A stretch of 64,000 bases of DNA from Candidatus Hydrogenedens sp. (GTDB taxonomy: Bacteria; Hydrogenedentota; Hydrogenedentia; Hydrogenedentales; Hydrogenedentaceae). The stretch spans positions 121,444 to 185,443 of the forward strand of contig JBMFRC010000005.1 in the NCBI GenBank assembly GCA_049968235.1, in the 5' to 3' direction. Below the pieces are notes generated by a model. It was not told the DNA's origin and did no database searches. It saw nothing but the letters and a program-made list of their open reading frames with translations. This document shows, piece by piece, positions 3,768 through 18,328 of the stretch. The position numbers and the translations under genes are program-made. Positions within the stretch are counted from its first letter, which is position 1. Each line of letters begins with the position of its first letter.

Positions 3768-6700
3768 ATGGCTGTGGCTCCCCGAACAGAACGTATTTCA
3801 TTATCCCGAGCACCTGAGGATTTATCTCATCTGCCCAATCTCATCGAAATTCAGACCAAATCGTTTGCGGATTTTTTGCAATGGGAGATTCCTCCCCATG
3901 AACGGCAAAATAAAGGACTGCAAGCGGTTCTTAACGAGTATTTCCCTATTGAGTCGCCTAATGGTTTGACGAAATTAGAGTTTGTGTCATACAACATTAT
4001 CCCTCCAAAATATACAATTGAAGAGTGTCAAAATTTAGGATTGACTTATAGTGGCACATTAAAAGCTACAATGAGACTTACAACATATGAAGAATCCCTC
4101 AAAGGTGAAAAGGAAGAGAAGCAGGTTCTTGAACAAGAGGTTTTTATAGCAGAAGTTCCATTAATGACACCCACAGGAACCTTTATTATTAATGGAGCGG
4201 AACGCGTTATTGTAAGTCAATTACATAAATCTCCGGGGGTTTCTTTTGAAAAAAAACAGCATCAAGGAGGAAAATACCTTTTATCTGCCCGAATTATTCC
4301 CTATCATGGAGCGTGGATAGAATTTGAATATGATATTAATGATGTGTTGTGGATTATTGTGGACCGCCGGGTGCGAATGCTGGCAACAACATTCTTAAAG
4401 GCTTTAGGATATGTTGAGCCGGATGAAATTCTGAAGATGTTTTATAGGATGGACCGTGTTCAGATAAAACGGAGTAAGGCATGTATCTTCCAGAAACAGA
4501 GGGTAAAGCGTGGAGGTAAAGAAACGGAGAAAGAAGTAGAGACCCGTGTAGAGGTGAAAGAACTTGTAGGCAATTGGCTTGCCATGGATATAATAGACCC
4601 TGAAACCGGTGAAGTTATTGCAGATGCCTCATCACAAATTACAACTGCGGTATTAAATGCAATTCTTCGTTCTCCTATTCGAGAGTTTTATATCTTAAAT
4701 AAGCAGGATGTGCTGAGTGATATAAGTATTGCTCAAACATTGAATATGGATCAGGCTCAAACGCAAGAAGAGGCGCTTCGTGAGATTTATATTCGTATGA
4801 GACCAGGAGACCCGACCAATGATGCTCAATGTCGGAAGCATTTTGAAAGCCTATTTTTTGACCCGGCTCGTTATGATTTTGCATCCGTAGGCAGGTATAA
4901 AATTAACAGAAAATTAGGGTTACAGATTTCACAGAAACAGCGGACTTTGACAAAGGAAGATATCCTTGAAACCCTTAAATATTTAGTGAAATTACATCGA
5001 GGCGAAGGGACTCTGGATGATATTGACCATTTAGGTAATCGCCGTGTAAGGACAGTGGGTGAACAATTAATGAATCAATTCCGAATTGGTATGGCGCGGA
5101 TGGAGAAAACAATCCGCGAACGAATGAATTACCGTTCTGAAGACCAGGAATATACCCCACAATCACTTATCAATTCGAAGCCGGTGGGAATGGTGTTGAA
5201 GGAATTTTTCGGAAGGAGTCAGTTATCCCATTTTATGGACCAAATCAATCCTTTATCCGAACTAACTCATAAACGACGATTAAGTGCATTGGGACCTGGT
5301 GGATTAAATCGTGACCGTGCTGGTTTCGAGGTCCGCGATGTTCATCCGACCCATTATGGTCGAATCTGCCCGATAGAAACACCTGAAGGACCGAATATCG
5401 GATTAATGGCTTCGATGGCAACATATGCACGAATAAATGAATATGGTTTTCTTGAAACGCCCTATCGTAAGGTGGAAAATGGAAGAGTCACGGATGAAAT
5501 TGTTTACCTGACCGCTTATGATGAAGATAATTATAAAATTGCTCAGGCAAATGAACCTCTGGATAATAAAGGGAAGTTTACAAATCATTTGGTACTTTGC
5601 CGACATAAAGGGGACTTCCCAATGGTTCCACCGGAAGAGGTGGATTTTATGGATGTGTCTCCCAAGCAAATTGTAAGTGCGGCTGCCGCATTAGTCCCAT
5701 TTCTGGAACACGATGATGCAAACCGTGCCTTGATGGGTTCTAATATGCAACGGCAGGCAGTTCCTTTATTAAAAGCGGAACAACCTCTTGTAGGAACCGG
5801 TCTGGAAAAAATCTGTGCAATAAATTCAGGAACTGCCGTTCGGGCTGAACGGTCTGGAATTGTAGAATATGCGGATAGCGAAGTGATTCGTATACGTATC
5901 GACAGTGCAAAAACAGATAATCCATTTAAGTTGGAAGAAGATGTATATCACTTAAAGAAATTTACGCGTTCCAATCAAAGTACCTGCATTAATCAAAAGC
6001 CTATTGTCCAGAAAGGGGATAGGGTAAGTGCAGGAGATATAATTGCAGATGGACCGGGTATGTGTGATGGAGAAATGGCATTAGGTAGAAATGTTTTAGT
6101 TGCGTTTCTACCGTGGGAAGGATATAACTTTGAAGATGCTATTATCCTGAGTGAAGAATTGATTAAAGATGATGTCTTTACCTCTATTCAGGTGGAAGTA
6201 TTTGAGATTGAAGCACGAGATACAAAATTAGGACCGGAAGAAATTACTCCTGATATTCCGAATGAAGGGGAAGAGACCCTGAAAAATCTTGATGAGAATG
6301 GAATTATTCATATTGGCTCAAAAGTTAAGCCGGGAGATATTCTTGTCGGTAAAGTAACACCAAAAGGTGAACAGGAACTGGCACCGGAAGAAAAATTATT
6401 AATTGCTATATTCGGAGAAAAAGCAGAGGATGTACGAAATGCCTCTTTATATGTTCCTCCCGGTACAGAAGGAATAGTTGTGGATGTAAAGGTATCCAGT
6501 CGTCGCAATAAATCTATAGATAAACAAACCAAAGCGAGAATTACCCGAGAAGCAGAACGTATTAAGCAAGAATATGCTGGGCGGATAGAGAAAATTCGAA
6601 AAACTTTTGTGGATTTAGTTCGCGATGATATGTTGGGGCAAAGAATAACGGAAGATGTTTTCGATTATACAACAAATGCCTATGTGCTTGAAAAAGGCAA

Positions 6701-11808: not shown

Positions 11809-11850
11809 GGTTCACGCCATTAGAAAAATAGTAATAAAAATAGTATAATA

Positions 11851-11888
11851 GGGAAGATAAATATAATGTTTATCTTCCCTATTTTAGT
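11851..11888 (+). terminator. rho-independent terminator after rpoC
   Basis: Perfect 11-bp stem gggaagataaa / tttatcttccc with 7-nt loop (11851-11879), followed by T-rich 'tattttagtat'. Confidence 0.6.
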
Positions 11889-11912: not shown

Positions 11913-12071
11913 ATGAAACATATAAAACCTATTTCTGCAAGAACAAAAGAACTGGATTGGGGGCTAAATTCCGGCCTGGGTGGTATTATGGTCATTATTC
12001 AAGCAATAATTTCATTATTGAATGCTATCGGTTCGATAAAAGGAACAGGTTCAGAAACAACGAACAATTAA
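11913..12071 (+). CDS. unannotated small ORF, 52-aa predicted single-pass membrane protein
   Basis: ATG 11913 ... TAA 12069-71. Translation MKHIKPISARTKELDWGLNSGLGGIMVIIQAIISLLNAIGSIKGTGSETTNN has a hydrophobic core. Below the 60-aa cut-off of the ORF track. Weak RBS. Confidence 0.25.
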   Translation: MKHIKPISARTKELDWGLNSGLGGIMVIIQAIISLLNAIGSIKGTGSETTNN

Positions 12072-12101: not shown

Positions 12102-13052
12102 ATGTCTATCATATCATTTGTAACAATAGGAATCCTGTCCATAAGCGGAGTATTATTAGATGGTATTGTTGCCACAGTAGATAATGAACCTATACTTATG
12201 AGCGACCTGCGAGAGGAAATTGCCCCCTTCCTTGCTGACTTACAATCGCAGGGAGCCACAGCCCAGCAAATACAGCAGGAGATGGAAAAAGCCCTTCAAA
12301 AGGCATTAGACCGTTATATCGAAAGACTTCTCCTCTATCGTAAAGCAGTCAACGAGGGATTGCAGGTAGATGAAAAAGAAATTGATGAGCGTGTTAACAA
12401 AATAAAAAAACGCTACGGCTCTCCGGAAGAATTTAATCGTCTTTTAGCAGAAAGCGGAGAGGTGATGAGTGAATTTCGTGAACGAATAAAACAACAACTT
12501 ATTGCCCTTTCCTATGCTTTGAAAAAAAGAAAAGAATTTGAAAAAGAAATTACAATATCCGAACCCGATATTGCCAAATACTACAACGAACATATTGAAG
12601 AATTTCAAAATCCGCAACGCATCAAGGTCCGCAGAATATTTCTATCCGCACCCAGAGAAGGGGAGGAACGGACAAAAGTAAAAGAATACATTTTAGAAAT
12701 ATTTGACCGTTTAAAACAGGGTGCGGATTTCGGCTCCATAGCTGAAAATGAATCTCAAGGTCCTGAAGCCGATAAATCTGGACTTATTGGCTGGGTATCC
12801 AGAGGTGATTTAGTTCCCGAATTAGAACAGGAAATCGAAAAAATGTCCGTTGGCGAAATTAGCCAACCCATCGAGACCGAATGGGGTTTTCATATCCTGA
12901 AAGTAGAAGAAAAAGAAGACAGCGGGAAACTTTCCTACGAACAGGCTCGTATCATTATCGAACCAAAACTCAAAGAACAATACATCAACGACCGTTATCA
13001 AAAATGGCTCAATGAAATAAAAAAAGGAGCCAATATCCGCATATTCATGTAA
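12102..13052 (+). CDS. SurA/PrsA-like periplasmic chaperone with one parvulin-type PPIase domain
   Basis: N-terminal signal/TM, SurA_N-like 'ATVDNEPILMSDLREE', parvulin motif 'GWVSRGDLVPELEQEIEKMSVGEISQPIETEWGFHILKV'. Confidence 0.7.
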   Translation: MSIISFVTIGILSISGVLLDGIVATVDNEPILMSDLREEIAPFLADLQSQGATAQQIQQEMEKALQKALDRYIERLLLYRKAVNEGLQVDEKEIDERVNKIKKRYGSPEEFNRLLAESGEVMSEFRERIKQQLIALSYALKKRKEFEKEITISEPDIAKYYNEHIEEFQNPQRIKVRRIFLSAPREGEERTKVKEYILEIFDRLKQGADFGSIAENESQGPEADKSGLIGWVSRGDLVPELEQEIEKMSVGEISQPIETEWGFHILKVEEKEDSGKLSYEQARIIIEPKLKEQYINDRYQKWLNEIKKGANIRIFM

Positions 13053-13307
13053 TAATGAAATGTATAAGCAATAAAAAAAGCACAGATTTCAATTTTCTTT
13101 AAACCTTCAATTATAATCTATATAACATTTTCTTCCAGTCGGATATTTCTCCCCTTCCAATTATCAGTATTTGATTCTTTTGGGATTAATTCTAAAACAA
13201 ATTATATTAATAGCAATAATTTTTTAGGAACTAAACGAAATGAGAAGGTATTTATATATTAATAGTATTATTATAAAAATAATTATGAAATATTTTCTAA
13301 GAAAAGC

Positions 13308-13336
13308 TTGACAAATAATTTTTTTTTTTGTATAAT
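13308..13336 (+). promoter_or_regulatory. consensus sigma-70 promoter TTGACA-N17-TATAAT with a T11 homopolymer filling the spacer
   Basis: ttgaca 13308-13313; spacer 13314-13330 contains ttttttttttt at 13319-13329; tataat 13331-13336. AGGAGG RBS at 13366 and ATG at 13379. Confidence 0.5.
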
Positions 13337-13378
13337 TAAAATTATTAAATTTGAAATTCAATAATAGGAGGTCCAATC

Positions 13379-14935
13379 ATGATTAAGCCATTCAAAAGAG
13401 CAACAACAAGATTCATTTTGACAGGCATATGCTTGTTAATTATTACAAGTTCTGTTTATGGATTGAATACTGATTTTATTCAAAAAGTTAAGGAAACAGA
13501 AAAATTAGTTTACGCCGATGTGAATAACAACTACATAAAAGATGCCCTTCAGAAATTGATAGACCTGTTTCGTTCTATTCCTGAAAATGATATAGAAAGT
13601 GCGGATGCCCTATTAGGACCCCTTCATTTATATAGTTTCATTATAAGCGAGTTTTGTCGTCCGGAATTTTTATATAAGGAAAAATTATTACAGGAGTATC
13701 AATATCCTTCTGACAAGTTATTAATGGCGGTTGCTTATTTGAATAACTCTACTACCCGTGTAAATACGGCTGTCTCTATTATAAATTGTCTAAATGAGTT
13801 GAAGCAAGGAGATAATAGAACCATGACATTTTTAGCGGAGGTGATAGGTGTCTATGCCTTGACATCAGAAGAAAGTATGAGAATACAAAAAGGAATGGGT
13901 TCTGAATTAACAAAGGAGATAGATAAATTATTTATAAATCTTTTCTTTGAAAATTATCCGACATTAACAGCCTCTCAATTTGTTTTACAGGACCTCTTAG
14001 ATAGAGGAATTGAGAAAGTTATTTCCGAATATGGAATGTATAATGTGGATAAACTTGTGAAAACCTATATCGAAACTCCTGAAAAATTAAATTTATTGGC
14101 AGGATTTAATAACACCGATATATCTACTCAAAAACTTTACACGCATCTTTCAGGCTTTAACAAGGTAGCCAATGTCCTACCTTCTATGAATTTATTCGAC
14201 ATCAAAGAGCAGGTTCTTCATAAATGGGTGGAGATGTTGAGGGAAGAAAAAGATATAAACACACGATATACACTCATTACATTCTTAAAATGTGGAAGTA
14301 TTCTAAACAAAGATTGTCAGGAACTTATAAAGACTGCTATCAAGGAAGCCAGCATGAAAAAAGAGTTAACACCGGATGTCCTATATGCAAAGATTACACT
14401 GTTAAAACTTGCTATGAAAAATTACTGGATAAAGGAAGCAGAAGAAATCTTGATGGATATTTCTCAATTAGAATTGTTACCTCCTATTCACGGTATTCAA
14501 AGTGTTTATGCTCAGCAAAAAAGATTTATGGAAAGAGGAACGGAATATTTTGTTAGACTGGGATATTACGACACTGCGAAGAAAGTATTAGAACTCCAAT
14601 TAGCAAAATACCGCGATAGTCACTTTGAAATGGGGACCAGAACTAAATTGGAAAAGTTAGAAAAATATCCAGTTGATTATAGCATAGAGTTAATCAATTT
14701 AGATATGGTAAAGTCTGATATGAGAAGAAGACCCGAGTTAATTCGTAAATATCTTGATGAAATTGTCAAATACACACCTAACCCTGACCTAAAAAACCTT
14801 CTTGCTAATCATAATGTAAATCAGCCTTTGAATTATTATACTAAAGACTATCCTATTATAGTTCAAAGGTTAGGTCTGAAAAAATTTTTTGAAGAGAGGG
14901 GGATACCATACCCTCCCATCGGAACACAAAAATAA
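13379..14935 (+). CDS. secreted hypothetical protein (518 aa), first gene of SSR-regulated operon
   Basis: Signal peptide 'MIKPFKRATTRFILTGICLLIITSSVYG'. Helical K/N/E-rich. No recognisable catalytic motif. Confidence 0.55.
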   Translation: MIKPFKRATTRFILTGICLLIITSSVYGLNTDFIQKVKETEKLVYADVNNNYIKDALQKLIDLFRSIPENDIESADALLGPLHLYSFIISEFCRPEFLYKEKLLQEYQYPSDKLLMAVAYLNNSTTRVNTAVSIINCLNELKQGDNRTMTFLAEVIGVYALTSEESMRIQKGMGSELTKEIDKLFINLFFENYPTLTASQFVLQDLLDRGIEKVISEYGMYNVDKLVKTYIETPEKLNLLAGFNNTDISTQKLYTHLSGFNKVANVLPSMNLFDIKEQVLHKWVEMLREEKDINTRYTLITFLKCGSILNKDCQELIKTAIKEASMKKELTPDVLYAKITLLKLAMKNYWIKEAEEILMDISQLELLPPIHGIQSVYAQQKRFMERGTEYFVRLGYYDTAKKVLELQLAKYRDSHFEMGTRTKLEKLEKYPVDYSIELINLDMVKSDMRRRPELIRKYLDEIVKYTPNPDLKNLLANHNVNQPLNYYTKDYPIIVQRLGLKKFFEERGIPYPPIGTQK

Positions 14936-14963
14936 ATTAATAAACAAGAGAGGAGGACAAAAT

Positions 14964-15099
<136 letters not shown>

Positions 15100-15107
<8 letters not shown>

Positions 15108-17034
15108 TTCTTGCTGTGATATAGAAAATTCCCTAAGTACTAATGCTTCTTGTGGTATTTTTTGTGAAGAGGGAGAATTAGGCAATATTACAGTATACCC
15201 ACAAAATTCTTGTTATTTAAAGGGAGAGAAAGTTCATGTATGGTTTGAAGGGACCAATCCGGATTATGATTTTTGTAACTGGTTATCCGATCCCCCTGAT
15301 ATTTATTCTGCTAACAATCCTTTACCTTACACAGTGGTTCAGATAAAAGACCAACCCCAGTCGCTAATTGCGTTTTGCCAGAAAAATAAGGTAACACTTA
15401 CAGTAGAGTGTGACTACGCTTCTTTTTTAATGCCTGGGAATAGATTAGAAGTTCCATCCGGAGCAAATGTGGCATATACCATAGTTAGTGGAGAACAGGT
15501 CCCCTGGCGTTATACTATAGAATATCCAGTAGGTTCCTCAATTGAAGTTTCTGCGATACCTGCCGATGGTTATATAATAGACTGGAAGGGGAATAGTGCT
15601 TGTGTTGGGGGATGTAAAGGTATTAGATATTATCAAAATAGTATTAATGTTATGATGGTGGGTAGTGTCTATTTAAAGCCTTGTGCAACCCACATAAACG
15701 ATTACGATTTTGATTTTCACACAATGACAATTAGTGCGGTTTATGGGGAGGGTATATTGTTAAGTGGCGGATATAATTATTCTCAGGGTGGGTGCGATAT
15801 ACCTCTATTTCCATATGCTTCTGCTTTATCTTATGGCAGATTTCGTGTAGCAGTAGTTCCAGAATCATTTAAATCTCTAGCATACTGGTATTGCTCTACA
15901 GAAAATCTTTATTGCCCTTCTGAAGTAGCAGAAGCAGTTTTCCCAATAAATGGAAATAGGACACATTCTGCTAACGCAGTTCTGGTTGATAAGGTTTTTT
16001 TAATTACTCCTGACCCATTAGGATTAAAGTACATAGACCATGTTCATTATTATGAAAATAATATGGGAGGTATAGCAAAAATAATTACTCCACTTTTATA
16101 TTCACCATCGAGTTTTGACCCATATCCTTTGGGGTGGAATCCTTTACCATACGGTTCTACCCATCCCAATGAATTCTGGTCGGTAGAAAATCTCTATGAG
16201 TGCCCAGAATGCAATGCGGTGGAACTTGAGCCCATTCCCTGTTTAGGTTCTGAATTCTTATATTGGGAAGTATCCCCTGATGGTGATGTTTGGATACCTG
16301 TCCCTCGCAATCCTATAAATCCAAATCTTACCGTATATATGAATTATTTTGGTTCATTTGACCCCATCTACTATCCTGGCGATATACATATTCCCAATGG
16401 AGGTGTCACCCTCTATGTTCGACCGGTATTCAAATTGTCTTGTGACTTCGTTTGTGGATATTGTTCCGGTCCTGATGGCCGTGATGTAATAATTGATATG
16501 TATGAAAATCCCGAGGTATTGTTGGGTGTTCAAATGTATCCTGGTCCAGCACCTGATTGCAGTAAATATGTAACAAACCAACAGAACCATCCTGCTCACT
16601 ATGAAAAAGAGGATTTATTACCATTTAATGTATTACAATGTCACCATGGAACTTTAAATTATCCGCACGATGGTTGGGCGATAGAGGACGGGATAGCGGA
16701 GTGTTATGATGCAGTAGAGCAAGCATATTCGGGAACGATAAATGTAACATCTGTATATCGTTGCCCGGTGAAGAATTCATCTGTTAATGGGAGTTTAACA
16801 AGCAAACATCTATTGGGCAAAGCATTTGACTTCGACCAACCAAGTTCAGAAGCCAACTGGCGTGTAGCTAAAACAGCATATGAATGTAATAATAATAATG
16901 AGATATTATTGTATTATTATGAGAACGGTAATAAAAAATCAGTAAGTTTTTATAAAGTTTCAGATGAAAATGAAAAACCATGGGAAAAATACATCTTCGA
17001 ACATGGACATGTTGGGATAGTTTCTGGAGATTAA
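15100..17034 (+). CDS. body of candidate phase-variable lipoprotein: Cys-rich extracellular region plus C-terminal peptidase M15A (LAS zinc D,D/L,D-peptidase, DUF882/YcbK-like) domain
   Basis: Frame +1 is open from 14977 with no start codon. It encodes '...LLSISILISGC PPQNPPQEF...' with lipobox I-S-G-C (Cys codon 15064-66) before the track GTG at 15100. C-terminus 'SVYRCPVKNSSVNGSLTSKHLLGKAFDFD' matches the SGYRxPxxNxxVGGxxxSxHxxGxAxD motif; 'HDGWAIED' and 'EHGH' supply the other Zn-ligand/ExxH motifs. Confidence 0.6.
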
Positions 17035-17059
17035 TAGTAAAAAGAAGGAGGAAAACGAT

Positions 17060-18328
17060 ATGACAATTTATCTTAAAACAGGAAAAAAATTCACATTAAT
17101 ATGTTTTTTTATATTATGTATTGTGAAAAATGGATATTCGCAAACAGATATAATTGAAAGTAAAACGATAAATTGGGGAAAGATTTATTCTTTAGTAGTT
17201 ATGGAAAGACTTCCTGAATTAGATGCAGAAAAAGAAAGAGAAATATTAGAAGAAACAGATAAAATTTTACATGAAACGAAGTCTCTTTATAAAGCCTGCA
17301 ATTTTCTAATGAATGAGGTAGCAGAAAAAGATAGGAAGAGATACTTAATTGTTGGCAATAAGAAAATAAAAGAAAAATTAGTGGAATTATTTAAGATGAG
17401 GATACAGTGTGAATTAAAAGAGGCAATTCAATCCGACTTGCAAGACAGTATTTTAAGTAGAAAAGATATTTCAGAAGAAGATAAGATGAGAGTGTTAGAG
17501 TCGATAAATAAAGAAAAAGAACTTATGAATAGTACTTTGAATTATTTAATAATGAGAGATGGTGATATGTGTTTAGATTGTTACATTCGTGATACAGAAC
17601 TGAAAAAGTTGTTGACGCCCCCACCGGGACAGGAAGAAGAATTTGAACCTGAAGGAGTATATTATAACATAGAGGCTTTTTATTCAGTAGCTCTTAGTAC
17701 CTTTGTTCCGGAGATGTATGATTATTTGTGGTTATCAAAATATGATGTAGAAGAGTTACCTTATTATCCTTTATATTTTTATATACTTAAGGTCTATCCG
17801 AAAGAATTTCTTAATGATATATCCCATGGTTTTATAAGATACAAAGATGGGTATATATACCGGAAAGAAGGAGAAGGTTTTCGATGGGAAGATGTGTTTA
17901 ACATCGCAGGGTTACTAACAGAATATAATTCATCTTTTGTAGAGCAAGAAAAGGATAGAATTAAAACAATATTGGGAAAATACTTTGAAGATTTTATAGG
18001 CAATATAAGGAAGGAAAGAGAAGAACTATTCCTACAAATATCTAGTAATAATAAAAAAGAGGATAGGACTACTTGCAATAGCATGTTAACAGATACTTTT
18101 TTTAAAGAATTGAGACTACGAGAAAAGATGTTAGCGATTTATGAGCGAATAGGAGAGAAAGAGGATGTAGAGGATATAAAGAAGTTGGCAGAAGATATTC
18201 CTTTGGATTATCCGGTGTGGGAGAGCAATCGAGAAGGGGACGAAAAACTAAGAGAAAGATACCTACAACGGGTGAAGGAACTTCAAGACAGAGTGAAAGT
18301 ATTGGTTGAGAAATTATCTCAACAATAG
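17060..18328 (+). CDS. secreted hypothetical protein (422 aa), E/K-rich coiled-coil
   Basis: AAGGAGG RBS. Signal peptide 'MTIYLKTGKKFTLICFFILCIVKNGYSQT'. Only 25 nt after the lipoprotein gene. Confidence 0.5.
   Translation: MTIYLKTGKKFTLICFFILCIVKNGYSQTDIIESKTINWGKIYSLVVMERLPELDAEKEREILEETDKILHETKSLYKACNFLMNEVAEKDRKRYLIVGNKKIKEKLVELFKMRIQCELKEAIQSDLQDSILSRKDISEEDKMRVLESINKEKELMNSTLNYLIMRDGDMCLDCYIRDTELKKLLTPPPGQEEEFEPEGVYYNIEAFYSVALSTFVPEMYDYLWLSKYDVEELPYYPLYFYILKVYPKEFLNDISHGFIRYKDGYIYRKEGEGFRWEDVFNIAGLLTEYNSSFVEQEKDRIKTILGKYFEDFIGNIRKEREELFLQISSNNKKEDRTTCNSMLTDTFFKELRLREKMLAIYERIGEKEDVEDIKKLAEDIPLDYPVWESNREGDEKLRERYLQRVKELQDRVKVLVEKLSQQ

Follow-up and report, generated by a model that had tools for sequence, protein, structure and literature searches.

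Can a run of eleven identical nucleotides between the two hexamers of a promoter make the genes behind it heritably variable in their expression? This question is raised by positions 13308–13336 (TTGACA AATAATTTTTTTTTTTG TATAAT) of a 64 kb stretch of DNA with 37% GC, hereafter the window, from a metagenome-assembled genome (MAG) of Candidatus Hydrogenedens sp. (phylum Hydrogenedentota). The original prediction, made from the sequence alone, had described the element as a perfect promoter with a T11 homopolymer in its spacer, placed ahead of a three-gene operon. Re-reading of the sequence bore this out: both hexamers match the consensus and stand 17 nt apart, 11 of the 17 spacer positions form a single T run, and a promoter scan gave a score of 12 out of 12 with a 17-nt spacer, the scan being based on the sigma-70 consensus, whose fit to this phylum we assume from the footprint described below. 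We consider it likely that the site is a real and strong sigma-70-type promoter of the gene 1–gene 2–gene 3 operon, with its spacing set by a hypermutable homopolymer, and thereby a volume-control contingency locus.

The –35 hexamer TTGACA (13308–13313; this and the following promoter elements lie on the plus strand) sits inside a conserved block, CTTGACAAAT, and is followed by the 17-nt spacer AATAA-T11-G (13314–13330), whose T11 homopolymer (13319–13329)—the putative hypermutable element—is the longest run of the window. The –10 hexamer TATAAT (13331–13336) ends 42 nt upstream of the ATG of gene 1 (13379). By sigma-70 promoter geometry, transcription would start about 7 nt past the –10 hexamer, at 13343–13344, giving a predicted 5′ untranslated region of ~35 nt, and the Shine-Dalgarno sequence AGGAGG of gene 1 (13366–13371) is kept as a ribosome-binding site in the orthologs. 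With both strands scanned, an exact TTGACA-N16–18-TATAAT occurred once in the 64 kb (chance expectation, 0.09), and intergenic DNA elsewhere in the window reached 8–10 of 12 at best; for calibration of the promoter scan, the window offered no tRNA genes. An Rfam search of 12900–13500 in E-value mode gave no match. When the intergenic sequence ahead of gene 1 and the sequence past gene 3 were folded as RNA, neither exceeded shuffled controls in structure nor contained a terminator, and the predicted untranslated region had no stable fold; the notion that the T run might be the U-tract of a terminator or part of a riboswitch was thereby ruled out.

Exact-protein look-ups and protein-pattern scans yielded 24 related loci (L001–L024) from about 11 lineages, with gene-1 proteins 22–100% identical to that of the window. 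Among these, L012 duplicates L004 and a further look-up (L025) returned the same contig again; exact-protein look-ups with gene 3 and with two neighbors described below, the SurA-like protein and a 52-aa open reading frame (ORF), added no extra strains. A multiple alignment of 13 orthologous upstream regions had TTGACAA as its sole invariant upstream block (13 of 13), and a –10-like hexamer followed the tract position in all 13, including L019 and L020, two GC-rich relatives with GC-rich flanks, a different genomic context, and a gene-1 identity to the window of 22–24%. Immediately 3′ of the tract, the orthologs carry TATAAT or TACAAT (TAAAAT in L020, see below), and the distance from the –10 hexamer to the start codon is ~42 nt across the AT-rich lineages.

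This footprint bears on the possibility that the match to the consensus arose by chance in AT-rich intergenic sequence, with the operon driven by read-through from the upstream SurA-like gene or by some other promoter. Such a coincidence would be compatible with the finding that 8 of 100 shuffles of the window contained at least one perfect match, and read-through with the absence of a predicted terminator between the SurA-like gene and the promoter. However, chance does not account for an invariant –35 block and a –10-like hexamer in all orthologs, even in the GC-rich surroundings of L019 and L020, nor for the conserved distance to the start codon, and on this evidence we rejected the explanation as very improbable.

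Within this conserved frame, it is the homopolymer that changes. An uninterrupted run begins 5 nt past the TTGACAA block in every lineage that retains gene 2 except L019, its length being T9, T10, T11, T12, or T14, or G10 in one GC-rich relative, and ortholog spacers vary with tract length between 14 and 18 nt. Following TTGACA, the window and L001 (GCA_049971155.1) read AATAA-T11-G-TATAAT (17 nt). L004 (GCA_049969095.1) has T10 between the flanks of the window and a spacer of 16 nt, in line with the earlier proposal that loss of a T would shift spacer length. Spacers of 17 nt (L013; ACTTA-T10-AG-TATAAT), 18 nt (L002; AATAC-T14-ACAAT, with the –10 hexamer read as TACAAT), and 16 nt (L007 and L008; AATGC-T12-ACAAT) follow in other lineages. 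A further lineage with T12 (L009, L010, L011, L018, and L023) also has 16 nt, and L024, with T10 between the flanks of L009, has 14 nt. For L005 and L015 (AGGAC-T9-ATATATTAT) the spacer is 15 or 17 nt, depending on the choice of –10 hexamer, and for L003, the contig of which begins inside a run of at least 13 Ts, it is not determinable.

In L020 (58% GC; promoter at 3918–3945 of that locus), the block CTTGACAAATAC is followed by G10 and TAAAAT (AATAC-G10-TAAAAT; 15-nt spacer). Poly-G thus takes the place of poly-T at the same offset, arguing that the homopolymer as such has been retained and not the DNA properties of a T tract. The same variant speaks to a different role for the run. T runs in the initially transcribed region are a hallmark of UTP-sensitive reiterative transcription, of the type found at E. 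coli pyrBI, codBA, and upp, and the run could accordingly be transcribed from a promoter just upstream of it. Yet no –10-like hexamer lies 5–9 nt upstream of the run (the best, ACAAAT, matches at three of six positions), nothing in the operon relates to pyrimidine metabolism, and both the G10 variant and the conserved downstream –10 hexamer would be left unexplained; for these reasons, we rejected this explanation as extremely unlikely.

Where a long tract is lacking, the spacer is exactly 17 nt, as opposed to the spread over 14–18 nt in tract-bearing lineages. This applies to L019 (60% GC; N17-TAGTAT, no run) and to a clade in which the tract is short and interrupted (L006, L016, L022 and L014, L017, L021; AATAC-YAG-T7-GC-AATNAT, with an extended –10-like TGc). 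In this T7 clade, the tract has the same length in six assemblies despite surrounding point substitutions. The gene-1 tree places the clade within the group of long-T clades, and gene 2 has been lost from it, such that gene 1 is directly followed by gene 3 in L006, L014, L016, L017, and L022. This loss, a single evolutionary event, suggests the lipoprotein encoded by gene 2 as the chief object of the switch. One locus of the clade, L017 (CAZJTZ010000009.1), is titled 'uncultured Nitrospirales bacterium' and has a syntenic block of the Hydrogenedens type, with identities to the window of 88% for rpoC, 88% for enolase, and 79% for the SurA-like protein; this bin is probably mislabelled or chimeric.

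How fast the tract mutates can be gauged from comparisons of consensus assemblies, on which all our evidence for hypermutability is based. The window and L004 share 6,871 aligned nt at 99.75% identity, with 17 single-nucleotide polymorphisms (SNPs) and one insertion/deletion (indel), namely T11 versus T10. L023 and L024 (6,416 aligned nt; 32 SNPs) differ by three indels—T12 versus T10, four versus five copies of TATC, and a T5 run—and the window and L001 (4,031 aligned nt; no SNPs) by a single one, one TATC unit (8 versus 7 copies). A stretch of 11–12 nt should have undergone only ~0.03 and ~0.06 changes at the divergence of the T11/T10 and T12/T10 pairs, respectively, and the mutation rate of the tract is thus far above that of an average site. 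The original prediction had hinged on a tract of variable rather than fixed length, and variable it is, even between close assemblies.

Could these length differences be sequencing or assembly errors around a tract that is truly fixed? Homopolymers are error-prone, the data consist of consensus metagenome assemblies throughout, and contigs break near the tract (that of L003 starts inside it, that of L005 19 nt upstream). However, 41 (window versus L004) and 64 (L023 versus L024) other runs of 5–8 nt were unchanged in the very same alignments, which argues against a general homopolymer error; one of the differences amounts to 2 nt (T12 versus T10); the same lengths recur when one lineage is represented by independent assemblies from JGI, Logan, and NCBI; and these comparisons also show variation in the TATC repeat, a type of repeat not prone to such errors. 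Error is therefore a highly unlikely source of the variation. The start of the broken contig of L003 (Logan, sample SRR31359994; positions 1–30) is made up of T13 and 17 further nt, a total of exactly k–1, as Logan contigs were built with k=31 (PMC12424806). This start would be consistent with a branch in the assembly graph between T13 and T14-or-longer alleles within one sample; a dead end from low coverage is a possible alternative.

Set against base composition, the T11 run by itself is unremarkable, and other long runs are scarce. After T11, the next-longest homopolymer of the window measures 8 nt, and its other homopolymers (A8/T8, G7) lie mostly within coding regions and include nothing notable. 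A first-order Markov model or an extrapolation of run lengths predicts ~0.8–0.9 A/T runs of at least 11 nt per 64 kb, and ~6.6 of at least 9 nt, of which one—T11—was observed. At this composition, the 246 kb of window plus related loci should contain ~25 long runs, yet the promoter tract is their sole A/T run of at least 9 nt or G/C run of at least 8 nt, bar one G8 in L020. Since T11 alone is not improbable, the significance of the tract lies in its position in the spacer, its conservation in orthologs, and the dearth of such runs elsewhere.

Several observations weigh against a hypermutable promoter switch. The first is just this, that T11 taken alone is statistically unremarkable at the composition of the window. 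The zero-SNP pair of window and L001 has identical T11 tracts despite its differing TATC counts, and five assemblies of one lineage (L009, L010, L011, L018, and L023) all have T12. The T10/T11 and T12/T10 pairs also differ by 0.25–0.5% in SNPs, and could thus reflect slow, fixed differences between strains. With two consensus hexamers, a length change of ±1 may have just a small effect. The swap from T to G is known from one lineage, L020, its relative L019 being devoid of a tract. Read-through could blunt any switch, given that the search for a terminator between the SurA-like gene and the promoter gave none. Finally, NCBI places Hydrogenedentota in the FCB group, of which the Bacteroidota use different promoter motifs.

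Some of these points are what one would expect if the promoter were real and the T tract merely a structural, AT-rich spacer, drifting slowly and neutrally in length without adaptive high-frequency switching. Lengths are indeed shared within lineages—besides the T12 of the five assemblies, T12 in L007 and L008 and T9 in L005 and L015—every length difference is accompanied by SNP divergence, and A/T runs slip less readily than G/C runs. A neutral spacer, however, would not be expected to carry G10 at the same offset, as in L020, or to account for one of one and one of three indels between close strains, and a structural optimum would not tolerate the spacers of 14, 15, and 18 nt that exist. Moreover, pure tracts of 9–14 nt have been kept while gene-1 identity dropped to 45% and long runs are otherwise absent from the 246 kb, which requires selection. 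Neutral drift of a structural spacer is, on balance, unlikely.

With the hypermutable promoter as the preferred explanation, slipped-strand mispairing during replication would add or remove Ts and thereby shift the spacer among 14–18 nt, around the 17-nt optimum. RNA polymerase holoenzyme would need ~17 nt between the hexamers, with 16 or 18 nt lowering promoter strength and 15 nt or less, or 19 nt or more, nearly abolishing it. Such a shift would raise, lower, or—with two or more slips—largely abolish transcription of all three genes, and the change, being heritable and reversible, would make up a 'volume control' contingency locus. Because both hexamers are consensus, a single-T slip probably tunes transcription rather than silencing it, and two or more slips would be needed for an off state. 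Judged by their spacer lengths, L024 (14 nt) and L020 (15 nt) are likely in such an off state. Switching would be frequent within populations. The swap to G10, the dearth of long runs, and the 17-nt fixity without a run versus the 14–18-nt scatter with one speak for mutability as the property for which the tract would be maintained by selection.

A second and faster switch may act on translation. The (TATC)8 repeat of the window (15001–15032, plus strand) lies in the signal-peptide codons of gene 2 and puts the gene out of frame (OFF), with a stop at 15105–15107. Seven copies are in frame, and L001, the zero-SNP sister of the window, has seven and encodes an intact 688-aa lipoprotein (ON), confirming that a lipoprotein switch resides in the same operon. 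The OFF form is annotated by pipelines as a 644-aa protein from a GTG at 15100. Of the four possible combinations of tract and frame, the three MAGs that belong to the strain of the window show T11/OFF (window), T11/ON (GCA_049971155.1), and T10/OFF (GCA_049969095.1), and T10 with gene 2 ON was not seen; the two repeats thus change independently. Of the two, the tetranucleotide repeat appears to be the faster. It would set translation of a lipoprotein with an M15 peptidoglycan-peptidase domain to ON or OFF on top of the graded promoter. Orthologs have four, five, or six copies of TATC, and L002 has (TC)6 in the signal peptide instead. In L020, a G8 (5456–5463) lies at the 5′ end of the gene-2 ortholog, between an upstream ATG and the signal-peptide frame, and G9 would join these two frames; this locus has thus retained both repeat positions, with G replacing T or TATC.

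What does the promoter control? The gene order is rpoB, rpoC, a hairpin, the 52-aa ORF, a SurA-like peptidyl-prolyl isomerase, a 326-nt AT-rich gap with the promoter, genes 1–3, a membrane protein, and enolase. The coordinates of the proposed operon (13379–18328, plus strand) were confirmed, and gaps of 28 nt between genes 1 and 2 and of 25 nt between genes 2 and 3, together with the absence of a predicted terminator within the operon, support a single transcription unit. Gene 1 (13379–14935) encodes a secreted, all-alpha solenoid protein of 518 aa with a signal peptide, as modelled by AlphaFold2 (pLDDT 83.5). Its model retrieved generic ARM/TPR solenoids alone from a Foldseek comparison with the PDB (TM-scores ~0.2), from which no function could be assigned, and its family is tiny, with 34 clusters among 1.84 billion representative proteins. 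Gene 3 (17060–18328; 422 aa) has a signal peptide, is rich in predicted coiled coil, and lies downstream of gene 2 or gene 1 in orthologs; like gene 1, it had no Pfam or NCBIfam match.

Gene 2 (14964–17034; frameshifted in the window) encodes a lipoprotein with a C-terminal M15/LAS zinc peptidase domain. The signal peptide, read in the ON frame, has the lipobox LISGC at its end; the N-terminal region of the protein is Cys-rich, and the M15/LAS motifs H570-x6-D577 and H635-x-H637 are intact. M15_3 was its sole match in Pfam and NCBIfam, and NCBI names it a D-Ala-D-Ala carboxypeptidase family metallohydrolase. A sequence search of the PDB came back empty, a profile search for further homologs found none, and an AlphaFold2 model built from three sequences (pLDDT 29.7) was not used. 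All three operon products carry signal peptides, and it is from these and the lipobox that we infer them to be envelope or surface proteins.

Farther upstream, a hairpin with a perfect 15-bp stem (11847–11883) directly past the rpoC stop codon is probably the rpoBC terminator. A TATAAT-like box separates it from the 52-aa ORF (MKHIKPISARTKELDWGLNSGLGGIMVIIQAIISLLNAIGSIKGTGSETTNN; 11913–12071). This ORF is conserved in every syntenic locus, with rpoC on one side and the SurA-like gene on the other (75% identity in L017), and has no family match.

In several orthologous loci we also observed orphan ORFs of 99–129 aa that match just the M15 C-terminal domain of gene 2 (L002, 11018–12636; L007, 10990–11319; L009, 10892–12510; L015, 6251–6571; L024, 6343–6633, the coordinates being those of the orphan-ORF regions); the window has none. 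A gene-3 paralog follows the orphan ORF in L002, in L009, and in the L011 copy of the L009 lineage, and none was detected in L007, L015, or L024. At its 5′ end, the orphan shares ~117 nt with the 3′ region of the main gene at 97% identity, and the sequences of the two strains L023 and L024 part from there on. The arrangement resembles the C-terminal cassette plus immunity gene of polymorphic toxins.

Nearly all work on repeat-driven phase variation concerns host-adapted pathogens. The present locus would extend the phenomenon, as a clear case, to an uncultured phylum of bioreactors and sediments with a global distribution. Hydrogenedentota are described as poorly understood (PMC11406978), and a full-text search on Hydrogenedentes and phase variation turned up a paper on flagellin diversity and no report of phase variation in the phylum. 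The alignment would also provide the first phylogenetic footprint of a canonical –35/–10 promoter in Hydrogenedentota. Public assemblies already contain tracts of different lengths, and gene 2 in its ON as well as its OFF frame, so that the locus amounts to a natural experiment. The site has persisted across deep divergence and a change of the repeat nucleotide; such repeats are usually thought to be evolutionarily short-lived. As a tentative idea, which we hold to be possible but doubtful, mutability itself might be the conserved trait: an ancient operon would have kept its spacer homopolymer and the 5′ repeat of gene 2 through deep divergence, with the repeat type tracking composition (a T run plus TATC or TC in AT-rich genomes, G10 plus G8 in a GC-rich one), as a bet-hedging device over an interbacterial weapon or a target of phages or predators in free-living bioreactor bacteria, and not for evasion of host immunity. 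This idea draws on the M15 lipoprotein that the operon would control and on its company, in sister genomes, of orphan C-terminal cassettes paired with gene-3 paralogs, which recall a polymorphic toxin and its immunity gene. On the practical side, gene 2, when out of frame, is annotated in MAGs as a truncated cytoplasmic protein, and assemblies tend to break at repeat tracts.

How, then, does this locus compare with known switches? Judged by sequence, it would share the defining features of phase variation through simple sequence repeats in promoter spacers, the class of porA, opc, fetA, and vlp. In porA, opc, and fetA of Neisseria meningitidis, homopolymer tracts (poly-G or poly-C) lie between the –35 and –10 hexamers (PMC2791445) and, as here, make up most of the spacer. 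Tract lengths are the same as in porA, where expression is graded—high with 11G, ~2-fold lower with 10G, and ~13-fold lower with 9G (PMC3639595)—a behavior that the present promoter would share by analogy. The products of the neisserial genes are envelope proteins, a likeness that may extend to this operon, given its signal peptides and lipobox. In contrast to these systems, the tract is poly-T here (poly-G in one GC-rich relative), precedes a three-gene operon instead of a single outer-membrane protein gene, belongs to uncultured bioreactor or environmental Hydrogenedentota and not to a host-adapted pathogen, and is conserved down to a gene-1 identity of 45% (22–24% in the GC-rich relatives).

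The two-level design, with a promoter run and a 5′ coding repeat, recalls sabA of Helicobacter pylori, which combines poly-T with CT (PMC2715451), and in the ortholog L002 the signal-peptide repeat is even (TC)n. In sabA, the position of the T tract is next to or upstream of the –35 hexamer, and its effect is exerted via DNA geometry and not via –35/–10 spacing. Here, by contrast, the tract itself forms the spacer, and the h-region of the signal peptide holds the coding repeat, in most cases a tetranucleotide; a sabA-like dual-level control would be apparent in the sequence, with (TATC)8 OFF and (TATC)7 ON next to identical T11 tracts. In Mycoplasma hyorhinis, a poly-A tract in the promoter spacer of the vlp genes reportedly controls lipoproteins (Yogev et al. 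1991; Citti and Wise 1995), which resembles our locus in having an A/T homopolymer between –35 and –10 hexamers and in the control of a lipoprotein. The Vlp system (cited in PMC11868660) differs in that several genes of one family encode repetitive surface antigens there, and in that the organism is a host parasite devoid of a cell wall, as against a single operon with a peptidoglycan-peptidase lipoprotein in a diderm-type environmental bacterium. Promoter spacing is likewise altered by a repeat inside the –35/–10 spacer at hifA/hifB of Haemophilus influenzae, where TA repeats in overlapping divergent promoters give graded ON/OFF expression (cited in PMC2791445); there, a dinucleotide repeat serves a bidirectional promoter pair, whereas here a mononucleotide run serves one direction. 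The proposed mechanism is thus already known from porA, opc, and fetA, and what this locus would add is its occurrence in an uncultured phylum that is not host-associated, together with an unusually deep signal of conservation.
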